Positions 55,352-55,889 of a DNA stretch of 64,000 bases are shown here, piece by piece. The DNA is from a virus, in IMG/VR virus record IMGVR_UViG_3300045988_098233, positions 6,748 to 70,747 of that record. One strand, written 5' to 3'. Below the pieces are notes generated by a model. The model did not search any database. It saw only the letters and a list, made by a program, of their open reading frames with translations, and had not been told where the DNA came from. Each line of letters starts with the position of its first letter. Within the stretch, counting starts at the first letter, position 1. Made by a program: the position numbers and the translations under genes.

Positions 55352-55419
55352 GCAGACGTCCAACCGGTACTTCTGTCCTTTCCACCGGGAGCCGGGGGCC
55401 TCTCCGGCCGTCTGCACCA
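55352..55419 (+). ncRNA. acceptor-stem module 1 (tRNA-like ends, non-tRNA interior)
   Basis: GCAGACG...CGTCTGC-A-CCA enclosing two hairpins (CCGGT..ACCGG and a 7-bp GCCGGGG/CTCCGGC tetraloop hairpin). No D or T loop. Confidence 0.35.
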
Positions 55420-55576
55420 TGCCCTCCCACATAAGAGGTAGTTACTCTATAAACCGTAGTGGGCATGAAACCTCCATATCTGGCAGTGGAGTCGGCGGGT
55501 TGATACAGCCGCTATCGGGACGGTATTCTCGGAGAATCTGAGCGACATGACCGCCGGGAAAGTCCGGCATCTATAT

Positions 55577-55639
55577 GCAGACGTCCAAGCCGCGGCCGAT
55601 CACGCGGGGAGTTGGGGACATCTCCAACCGTCTGCACCA
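55577..55639 (+). ncRNA. acceptor-stem module 2
   Basis: Same GCAGACG...CGTCTGC-A-CCA ends. CCGCG-GCCGATCA-CGCGG arm and a 7-bp GTTGGGG/CTCCAAC tetraloop hairpin. Confidence 0.35.
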
Positions 55640-55817
55640 TGGCAGGGAACGTTTTCGGGTGATGCGTCTCTGCCACTGCTCCATAAATATATAAGCTGCG
55701 GCCCGCAAAAGCAGCTCGCCTCCGGCAACTGGTCCTTGCCCTTGACGCCCCGGTGCAATTCCGGTTGGGCATAGGACCCCTCGCACCTCTCAACGATGTG
55801 TCCAAAGCGGGACATTT

Positions 55818-55889
55818 GCAGACGTAGCTCAGTAGGCAGAGCACCGCGCCAGGAGGTATGCGCTGGTTCAAGTCCAGCCGTCTGCACCA
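55818..55889 (+). ncRNA. acceptor-stem module 3: tRNA-like with normal D and T arms but aberrant anticodon arm
   Basis: GCAGACG TA GCTCAGTAGGCAGAGC A ... GCTGG-TTCAAGT-CCAGC CGTCTGC A CCA. Only 18 nt (CCGCGCCAGGAGGTATGC) sit where a 17-nt anticodon arm plus variable loop should be. Confidence 0.45.

Follow-up and report, generated by a model that had tools for sequence, protein, structure and literature searches.

We report the analysis of three tandem RNA elements, here called modules 1, 2 and 3, in the transfer RNA (tRNA) array of a phage that is represented by 64,000 nucleotides of DNA (positions 6,748 to 70,747 of the IMG/VR record IMGVR_UViG_3300045988_098233; this whole stretch, numbered from its first letter, is 'the window' in what follows). 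The three elements are real, non-coding and derived from tRNA, and none of them can decode or present an anticodon; that they represent three paralogous genes for non-decoding, tRNA-derived RNAs within a phage tRNA array is well supported. Non-decoding tRNA-like RNAs in viral tRNA clusters are already known, and what is unusual here is the combination of one acceptor 'handle' with several conserved 'heads' and with a founding member that has spread through many gut phages. Because module 3 belongs to a family conserved in at least 117 gut-phage contigs, the elements look, as far as their sequences can tell, like purpose-built tRNA mimics rather than broken genes. A full-text search of the literature found no description of the module 3 family, which appears to be undescribed.

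The modules lie on the plus strand at 55352-55419 (module 1, 68 nucleotides, nt), 55577-55639 (module 2, 63 nt) and 55818-55889 (module 3, also designated M3sd, 72 nt), with starts spaced by 225 and 241 nt; an earlier note, made from the letters of the window, had described three tandem modules with one acceptor stem at this spacing, and this description holds. Common to all three are an identical acceptor helix of seven base pairs (bp), namely G1-C72, C2-G71, A3-U70, G4-C69, A5-U68, C6-G67 and G7-C66, the discriminator A73 and an encoded CCA. The corresponding pattern, GCAGACG-N40-70-CGTCTGCACCA, occurs three times in the window versus not once in 100 dinucleotide-preserving shuffles, and each module folds by itself into the expected shape.

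Module 3 has its acceptor strands at 55818-55824 and 55879-55885, the discriminator at 55886 and the CCA at 55887-55889. Its interior consists of a D arm (55827-55842, GCUC-AGUAGGCA-GAGC), a segment of 18 nt (55844-55861, CCGCGCCAGGAGGUAUGC) and a T arm (55862-55878, GCUGG-UUCAAGU-CCAGC), and the elbow of a tRNA, that is a D arm with G18G19 and a T arm with a UUCRANY loop, is present. The 18-nt segment stands in for the anticodon arm and variable loop, for which a tRNA needs 21-22 nt. Against the Rfam tRNA model (RF00005, gathering score 29) the module scores 51.1 bits with the anticodon arm skipped, the covariance-model alignment setting 9 nt against 13 model positions there, which agrees with the earlier account of the D and T arms and with its statement that no 5-bp stem with a 7-nt loop can form.

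Modules 1 and 2, for which the same model gives no match at E <= 10, carry a linker of 5-6 nt and a 7-bp tetraloop hairpin where the elbow would be. In module 1 (acceptor strands 55352-55358 and 55409-55415, discriminator A 55416, CCA 55417-55419) the linker UCCAA (55359-55363) is followed by hairpin A (55364-55388), in which five pairs, CCGGU/ACCGG, close a pyrimidine-rich loop of 15 nt with a conserved GUCCUUUCC, and by hairpin B (55391-55408; GCCGGGG-GCCU-CUCCGGC, 7 bp and a tetraloop, fold z -2.7). Module 2 (acceptor strands 55577-55583 and 55629-55635, discriminator A 55636, CCA 55637-55639) has the linker UCCAAG, a hairpin A (55590-55607; CCGCG-GCCGAUCA-CGCGG) with a 5-bp stem and a loop of 8 nt, and a hairpin B (55611-55628; GUUGGGG-ACAU-CUCCAAC) that is again of 7 bp with a tetraloop (fold z -3.4); folding confirms both the CCGCG/CGCGG arm and the tetraloop hairpin that had been proposed for this module. 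The earlier note saw two unrelated hairpins in module 1: two hairpins there are, yet the second, together with UCCAA, is homologous to its counterpart in module 2. Its further claim, that exactly the parts read by RNase P/Z and the CCA-adding enzyme are kept, goes too far for modules 1 and 2, which are without the D/T-loop elbow and so retain less of these parts.

A 7-nt anticodon loop with U33 is absent, the loop having 8 nt and no U33 in module 2 and 15 nt in module 1. ARAGORN, a check that had been proposed in advance, calls only tRNA-Gly(CCC) and tRNA-Gln(UUG) in the array and none of the three modules. The anticodon arm is the defining feature of a tRNA and the modules are without it, and they are therefore not to be annotated as tRNAs. 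Other identities were considered and rejected. Transfer-messenger RNA (tmRNA) has no match in ARAGORN or Rfam, and pair 3-70 of the modules is A-U and not G3-U70. At E <= 10, Rfam gives no match to GOLLD, ROOL, tmRNA, Y RNA or ribozymes and nothing that overlaps modules 1 and 2; the only matches overlapping modules are of tRNA type, with an antisense tRNA-like one (Plastid-ycf2), besides a negligible long non-coding RNA match of 10.8 bits on module 3. Open reading frames (ORFs) cross the modules on both strands, yet any frame is disrupted by length variants (63, 65, 81 and 116 nt in the one slot occupied by module 2, and 72 versus 73 nt for module 3), and protein coding was rejected. The repeats of Type III toxin-antitoxin systems (ToxI-like) were rejected likewise: the units resemble one another only at their ends and have a spacing of 225-241 nt, and there is no adjacent toxin gene. 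The sequence complementary to the module 1 loop, and likewise that to the module 3 interior, was not found elsewhere in the window.

Module 3 is conserved far beyond its own genomic context. Two independent patterns were used to scan IMG/VR, and both counts are lower bounds: the acceptor with the start of the D arm gave at least 117 phage contigs and the interior by itself (GAGCACCGCNCCNGGAGGTA) at least 119. The members of this family are 72-73 nt long and mostly the sole tRNA-like gene of their locus, where they lie a short way upstream of the genes for the small and large terminase (terS/terL), in the same orientation and in a spot for accessory genes; the gene between element and terminase has a Tad2-like domain in 16 loci and is a ParB-methyltransferase in 14. 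Even in phages whose neighbouring genes have no relation to those of the window, identity of the element remains at 92-96%. It is accompanied into these unrelated genomes by a leader of about 50 nt (55768-55817 in the window, plus strand), which has an ACCUCU complementary to the GGAGGU of module 3.

Across 46 representative sequences of the family, the acceptor, D and T helices and a short interior stem are 99.5% paired, seven pairs have changed on both sides, a result that was not equalled in any of 500 shuffles. Of the T stem there are at least four versions, GCUGG/CCAGC, GCAGG/CCUGC, GUUGG/CCAAC and GUAGG/CCUAC, and while it changes by compensation 16 of the 18 interior positions hardly change at all. 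The interior, of 18-19 nt, reads CCGC(G/A/U)CC(N)GGAGGUAUG(U)C, can be summarised as CCGCRCCNGGAGGUAUG, varies freely at two positions only and includes a GGAGG that is nearly invariant across the family; as regards its fold, a 4-bp stem with a pentaloop and a 5-bp bulged hairpin fit equally well, and neither covaries. Choosing elements by their interior introduces no bias as to the acceptor, and in the set chosen in this way 66 of the 74 distinct sequences have the acceptor GCAGACG/CGUCUGC; fully complementary alternatives are GGUUUCG/CGAAACC (three times), GCAAGCG/CGCUUGC (once) and GCAGAUG/CAUCUGC (once), and CCA is encoded in about 66 of the 74. These patterns of variation indicate that module 3 is a structured RNA under long-term purifying selection, constrained in its interior at the level of sequence, and that it is not a decayed copy. 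The idea of the earlier note that the modules might be degenerate duplicates of one tRNA does not suit module 3, which is conserved and under structural selection, though it may hold for the other two modules.

Modules 1 and 2 are, on comparison of their sequences, clearly paralogues of each other. They have GCAGACGUCCAA at the 5' end and the UCCAA linker in common, and their hairpins B share the consensus G-YY-GGGG-NNNN-CUCC-RR-C, 7 bp and a tetraloop stacked on the acceptor, within which CC/GG in module 1 is exchanged for UU/AA in module 2, two compensatory pairs. In 29 variants of the two modules the structure is 95.5% paired and five pairs have changed on both sides, across three helices, although this covariation comprises few independent events; one of the five is the acceptor pair C6-G67, which passes through U-G to U-A. 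This series, together with the fully compensated alternative acceptors of the module 3 family, shows that the acceptor of these elements is an RNA helix. A covariance model built from the 29 variants found full matches in members of the clade only, and a search of IMG/VR and a metagenome collection for the hairpin B pattern with a free acceptor returned only GCAGA(C/U)G elements plus chance matches.

Within the clade, 25-27% of sites are variable in modules 1 and 2, 13-19% in the spacers and 10-15% in tRNA-Gly and tRNA-Gln. Since modules 1 and 2 vary more than the spacers do, sequence conservation is no argument for their function; what argues for it are the parts that are kept, namely the full acceptor (14 positions), U8, discriminator and CCA, along with the stems and the loop cores, which are GUCCUUUCC in module 1 and CGAUC (CGAUCA) in module 2. 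Some variants carry stem mismatches and either module may be absent, module 1 being found in about 30 of 37 distinct arrays. Modules 1 and 2 are young, clade-bound and further reduced tRNA-derived elements.

The related arrays were collected by a scan of IMG/VR for the ends of modules 1 and 2, which gave 27 loci, and by a search with the primase, which gave 78 more. Every contig with a primase at least 83% identical has the same array, and contigs with a 60%-identical primase are without any tRNA array. The layout (tRNA-Gly, 110 nt, module 1, 157 nt, module 2, 171-191 nt, module 3, 140 nt, in some cases tRNA-Trp, and tRNA-Gln) is kept in order in the window and about 40 relatives, with the modules present or absent in varying combinations. 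The region is built as a mosaic, each block being either almost the same between contigs or exchanged as a whole: an element of 81 or 116 nt with the same acceptor and the same spacers may occupy the slot of module 2, and that of module 3 holds versions of 72, 74/75 or 77 nt, all with the same acceptor. Some of these variants have short stems that close loops of 5-6 nt, for which reason ARAGORN labels them 'tRNA-Phe(aaa)', 'tRNA-???(aa)' or 'tRNA-Ile(aat)'. Comparison with relatives had been set beforehand as a test, and the relatives carry the same modules rather than a single ordinary tRNA in this place; acceptor, discriminator and CCA are kept while the interiors differ, as the earlier note had proposed, both in the approximately 40 related arrays and in more than 100 unrelated phage contigs. 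For its suggestion that the modules are parts of a larger RNA we found no support.

As to the origin of the acceptor, a scan of 185,579 species, one genome each, was made for the acceptor followed by TAGCTCA, and host tRNAs with another D stem are outside its reach. Within that limit it found no host tRNA that is being mimicked; the ordinary tRNAs with the module acceptor are tRNA-Arg(ACG/GCG) of other phyla, and the matches in Oscillospiraceae are elements of the phage type. Since the matching ordinary tRNAs are tRNA-Arg, the module family probably descends from a tRNA-Arg. Phages also carry apparently ordinary tRNAs on the acceptor GCAGA(C/U)G, with discriminators that match their anticodon arms, including Asn GUU (with G73), Gly GCC (with U73), Lys UUU, Thr, Met and Ile (loci L231, L233, L253, L255, L304 and others), and the tRNA and tRNA-like genes of these phages appear to diversify by swapping interiors on a common acceptor frame.

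The reading of these RNAs that we favour, tentatively and at somewhat less than an even chance, is that the modules are excised in the manner of tRNAs and act as mimics of the acceptor/CCA end, whether as decoys or as adaptors. They would be transcribed together with the neighbouring tRNAs, cut by RNase P at G1 and trimmed on the 3' side to the encoded CCA, and the products would accumulate as stable RNAs of 63-72 nt that present one acceptor end on different conserved heads; in modules 1 and 2, all that is kept of the tRNA, namely acceptor helix, U8, discriminator and CCA, is joined to a variable hairpin and to the tetraloop hairpin stacked on the acceptor. Such mimics would compete for, or serve as adaptors to, a factor of host or phage origin by which the acceptor stem and CCA are read, and candidate factors are defence toxins that inactivate the 3' ends of tRNAs; having several copies would raise the dosage. 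Without an anticodon, a tRNA body meets only readers of the acceptor, the CCA or the elbow, and end mimicry would therefore be the most economical role. The toxSAS enzyme FaRel2 selects tRNAs by G1-C72, C2-G71, G4-C69 and R5-Y68 and modifies a bare minihelix (PMC11245113), and the module acceptor has all four of these determinants; nucleotidyltransferases of the MenT type also act on acceptor ends (PMC10435456). It is established that phage tRNAs counter tRNA-directed defences (PMC11464382, PMC11555353), and the position of module 3 elements in an accessory hot spot, by Tad2-like and methyltransferase genes, fits counter-defence as an association only.

Several observations weigh against this reading. 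Decoy and minihelix roles, both raised in the earlier note, are plausible, yet the conserved core of each interior (module 3 GGAGGUAUG, module 1 GUCCUUUCC, module 2 CGAUCA) would be superfluous for a pure acceptor decoy. The excess of variable sites in modules 1 and 2 over the spacers and true tRNAs counts against it, as do the stem mismatches in some of their variants and the absence of either one from some arrays, and the stack of acceptor and hairpin B amounts to 14 bp, where that of a tRNA has 12. The fit to FaRel2 is weak evidence, for G1, C2, G4 and R5 are not rare among tRNAs, and GGUUUCG and GCAAGCG, the alternative acceptors, are at odds with its determinants. A decoy for an enzyme of multiple turnover must be very abundant. 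Furthermore, the same acceptor is found on apparently ordinary phage tRNAs (Asn, Gly, Lys and Thr) and may be a 'frame' of the lineage rather than a specific lure. A broader proposal, which we regard as rather unlikely but worth stating, is that gut phages encode dedicated, anticodon-less tRNA mimics with a constant handle and exchangeable heads for counter-defence or takeover, either soaking up or redirecting readers of tRNA 3' ends or using heads that imitate or pair with the 3' tail of 16S rRNA; module 3 would then be the founding, widespread member, expanded into a small multigene family by the clade of the window.

Two other explanations, each of them unlikely but deserving serious weight, concern the array as a whole and the status of modules 1 and 2. 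The modules might be processing or stability elements, folds that RNase P and 3' enzymes recognise and that punctuate a long transcript, to free or protect the flanking RNAs or a downstream late mRNA, as the t-elements of plant mitochondria and the MALAT1 mascRNA do. This would suit the spacing of tRNA and tRNA-like elements by 110-190 nt, with spacers that have conserved hairpins (GNNNG-GAAAGA-CNNNC in at least six stem versions), the leader and trailer segments that are conserved pieces of the mosaic, and the place of module 3 directly ahead of terS/terL, co-oriented, in other phages; t-elements, moreover, have been documented as processing signals (PMC1920247). However, a pure cleavage signal has no need of the near-invariant interior of module 3 beside a T stem that changes by compensation, the spacers are weakly structured overall (z +0.4 to -2.5), and three successive signals with no coding in between have no obvious use. 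The second explanation, to which we give similar weight, makes modules 1 and 2 decaying duplicates from unequal recombination within the array and leaves only module 3 functional. Their restriction to one shallow clade, their variability relative to the adjacent spacers and real tRNAs, their differing presence among contigs, the block swaps in the same slot and the occasional stem mismatches all accord with it, and the window encodes RecT and a YqaJ-like exonuclease. Decay sits less well with the retention of all 14 acceptor positions, U8, A73 and CCA despite the loss of the D and T arms, with helices that are 95.5% paired and show compensated changes in all three, with the conserved loop cores GUCCUUUCC and CGAUC, and with the presence of module 1 in some 30 of the 37 distinct arrays.

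The remaining explanations are less probable still. It is improbable, though the matches are suggestive, that the heads, borne on a stable tRNA-like scaffold, act on the Shine-Dalgarno (SD) and anti-SD system by binding the 30S subunit or mRNA, or by luring factors or toxins that recognise the 16S tail. The AGGAGGU of module 3 is antisense to the 3' tail of 16S rRNA, GAUCACCUCCUUUCU (taken from PMC6107228; shuffle P 0.005), and GAUCAC of module 2 and UCCUUUC of module 1 match it in the sense direction (P 0.012 and 0.042); toxins that cut the anti-SD are known (PMC12274833, PMC12620021). The near-invariance of GGAGG in the module 3 family points the same way, as does a complement of at least 6 nt to (A)GGAGG(U) in 49% of distinct module 3 leaders versus 5.5% of random windows. 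But the test was post hoc, prompted by the SD of module 3, eleven other head types of the family have no match to the 16S tail, GGAGG may simply pair with CCGC in the short stem, the complement in one class of leader is the ribosome-binding site of a divergent gene, and the phage's own genes use strong SDs, for example upstream of the HU gene. More doubtful again is the notion of aminoacylated carriers, in which a synthetase that ignores the anticodon charges the acceptor and the amino acid is donated outside translation, for the cell wall, lipids or protein tagging, or in which the RNA is a sponge for EF-Tu. The acceptor helix, A73 and CCA are intact for this purpose and module 3 has the full elbow. 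Several synthetases accept minihelices as substrates (reviewed in PMC9976931). Against this, there is no G3-U70, no G-1 and no long variable arm, the bacterial tRNAs with this acceptor are tRNA-Arg while the A20 and anticodon that ArgRS requires are absent from the modules, and the window ORFs that were scanned include no aminoacyl-transferase gene. Least probable is that the inverted 7-mers mark sites in the DNA for recombination, attachment, packaging or replication. At 4-5 kilobases (kb) downstream there are an integrase and a resolvase, module 3 adjoins the terminase genes in other phages and the swaps between constant flanks are cassette-like, yet the array of the window lies some 35 kb from the portal and terminase genes, the strand is constant, the elements have G18G19, a T loop and an encoded CCA, all of them specific to tRNA, and G-U intermediates and compensatory changes occur in every helix.

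The acceptor-end mimics that we favour have partial counterparts among known systems. The closest analogues are RNAC and RNAD of phage T4 (species 1 and 2 stable RNAs), which are likewise small, non-decoding RNA genes within a phage tRNA cluster and have yet to be given a biological role (PMC3014915, PMC9697503); at the end of RNAC there is a canonical T arm (GGGUUCGAAUCCC). They have no detectable sequence similarity to the modules, are 119-139 nt long, are without an encoded CCA or an acceptor in common with a neighbour, and belong to a phage whose host is a proteobacterium. The tRNA-like RNAs of gammaherpesvirus 68 are cloverleaf-like with a degenerate or short anticodon arm, are cut by RNase P and RNase Z, receive CCA and play no part in translation. 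The same holds for the t-elements of plant mitochondria and for the MALAT1 mascRNA (PMC1920247, PMC8457004), with whose folds those of the modules are compatible. All three, however, are eukaryotic or organellar, have no acceptor common to several copies and no conserved replacement segment like that of module 3, and the processing of the phage modules is only predicted.

Phage tRNA-shaped RNAs are tied to host tRNA-directed toxins in the cases of the T5 tRNA-Lys against PARIS and of tRNA-Tyr against the retron Eco7 (PMC11464382, PMC11555353). Those RNAs are functional tRNAs, stand in for the host tRNAs that have been cleaved and have a different anticodon loop, whereas the modules have no anticodon and could only compete or bind at the acceptor end. 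Allo-tRNAs (8/4 and 9/3), which have been reported from Clostridia and phages (PMC5389517), and armless mitochondrial tRNAs depart from the cloverleaf and keep a 12-bp-like acceptor branch, and modules 1 and 2 share the layout of a D-armless tRNA; but those tRNAs keep a 7-nt anticodon loop and decode, whereas modules 1-3 have no such loop and modules 1 and 2 have no T loop either. In tmRNA and the YrlA Y RNAs the acceptor and T arm are mimicked and the anticodon arm is replaced, as in the modules (PMC4201824), which differ from them in having no G3-U70, no tag reading frame, no Ro-binding stem and no ARAGORN or Rfam match of these kinds.

The array itself sits in a non-coding stretch of 1.3 kb, bounded upstream by an ORF of 144 amino acids (54363-54797) and downstream by an HU-type gene (56133-56408), with the modules between tRNA-Gly(CCC) (55168-55241, plus strand), the first ordinary gene of the array, and tRNA-Gln(UUG) (56030-56104, plus strand), its last gene; both are canonical by ARAGORN and Rfam. 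No convincing promoter of the sigma-70 type was found in front of any module. The spacers are unusually long, 110-190 nt, and a hairpin GCCCG-GAAAGA-CGGGC at 55296-55311, with further copies at 55553-55568 and 56008-56023 (all plus strand), stands upstream of module 1, module 2 and tRNA-Gln, in each case ahead of a tRNA or tRNA-like element. In the related loci this motif, UG(A/G)C(A/C/G)-GNNNG-GAAAG(A/U)-CNNNC, has 354 copies with an invariant loop and at least six fully compensated versions of the stem; its GGAAAG could pair with CUUUCC in the loop of module 1. Hairpins resembling a T arm, CCGG-UG(U/C)(G/A)AUU-CCGG within UGCCC...GGGCA, lie upstream of tRNA-Gly and of module 3 (55138-55162 and 55747-55771, plus strand), occur with a CGCG stem in other phages and may be relics of tRNA T arms. 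The spacer 3' of module 2 (55640-55720, plus strand; UGGCAGGGAACG...AUAUAUAAGCUGCGGCCCGCAAAAGCAGCUC) also follows solitary elements of the module 3 type in many unrelated phages (such as loci L247, L248 and L287), and short non-coding blocks are therefore shuffled together with tRNA-like genes.

At the head of the array is a further non-canonical tRNA-like element (54956-55058, plus strand) with the 8/4 layout of allo-tRNAs: its acceptor has 8 bp (GGGCGAAA/UUUCGCUC) and its T stem 4 bp. The D stem, of 4 bp, closes a loop of 4 nt and the 'anticodon' stem, of 6 bp, one of 9 nt; the variable arm is long, and the element ends in ACCA. It matches the Rfam tRNA-Sec model at 27.4 bits, below the gathering score of 47, and 35 variants show compensatory changes in the anticodon stem and variable arm and have two loop sequences, ACUCACACC and CCUAAUCUC. 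Odd tRNA-like genes also make up an array, of another composition, in the related phage of locus L106 (4880-5750), where the C-terminus of the primase is 95% identical; it includes a 'tRNA-Met' that has no Rfam match and whose T loop reads GGCGGAA, an element of about 105 nt with the acceptor GGAGACG/CGUCUCC and no CCA, and an 82-nt 'tRNA-Glu' with a 9-nt loop.

The window derives from a double-stranded DNA phage that encodes a portal protein, endolysin, integrase and resolvase, along with a RecT-like annealing protein, a YqaJ-like exonuclease, a replisome organiser and a primase-type protein. It has the look of a temperate gut phage whose host is probably a member of the Oscillospiraceae: related contigs come from human-gut metagenomes, and copies in genome bins carry the labels Oscillospiraceae, Dysosmobacter, Oscillibacter or Clostridia. 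Among 50,697 GenBank phage records no close relative of the window was found, and a BLAST search of the array region against them gave only matches at the level of tRNAs and one unannotated faecal phage. Comparison of the window ORFs with Pfam, PHROGs and NCBIfam revealed no gene for tRNA processing, ligase, nucleotidyltransferase, synthetase or aminoacyl-transferase, several ORFs, including most of the small neighbours of the array, being without any family match. DNA-modification-type genes (25313-27999 and 43089-43790, minus strand, and 58653-59735, plus strand) comprise Mom-like, PAPS-reductase-domain, C5 cytosine methyltransferase and N6/N4 methyltransferase genes and a NifS/IscS/DndA-like cysteine desulfurase; the last of these is 2.8 kb downstream of the array and could equally serve the thiolation of U8 in tRNA-like RNAs. 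A TnpB / IS605 OrfB (Cas12f-like) gene (22299-23417, minus strand) lies in a patch with a G+C content of 0.52 versus about 0.59, which is probably an insertion sequence within the phage.

Phage tRNA genes are now known as weapons against tRNA-directed immunity, and every established case is a working tRNA. If the proposed acceptor-end mimicry is correct, a conserved, non-decoding, tRNA-shaped RNA would represent a different solution, akin to the RNA anti-CRISPRs that mimic repeats, and would open a way to learn what the orphan stable RNAs of phage tRNA clusters do, which has been asked since T4 RNAC and RNAD. There is also a consequence for surveys, in which such elements can be counted as tRNAs, module 3 passing the Rfam gathering score for tRNA and ARAGORN calling some related variants odd tRNAs. 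Finally, one acceptor frame with swapped interiors bears on the evolution of tRNA genes in mobile elements.

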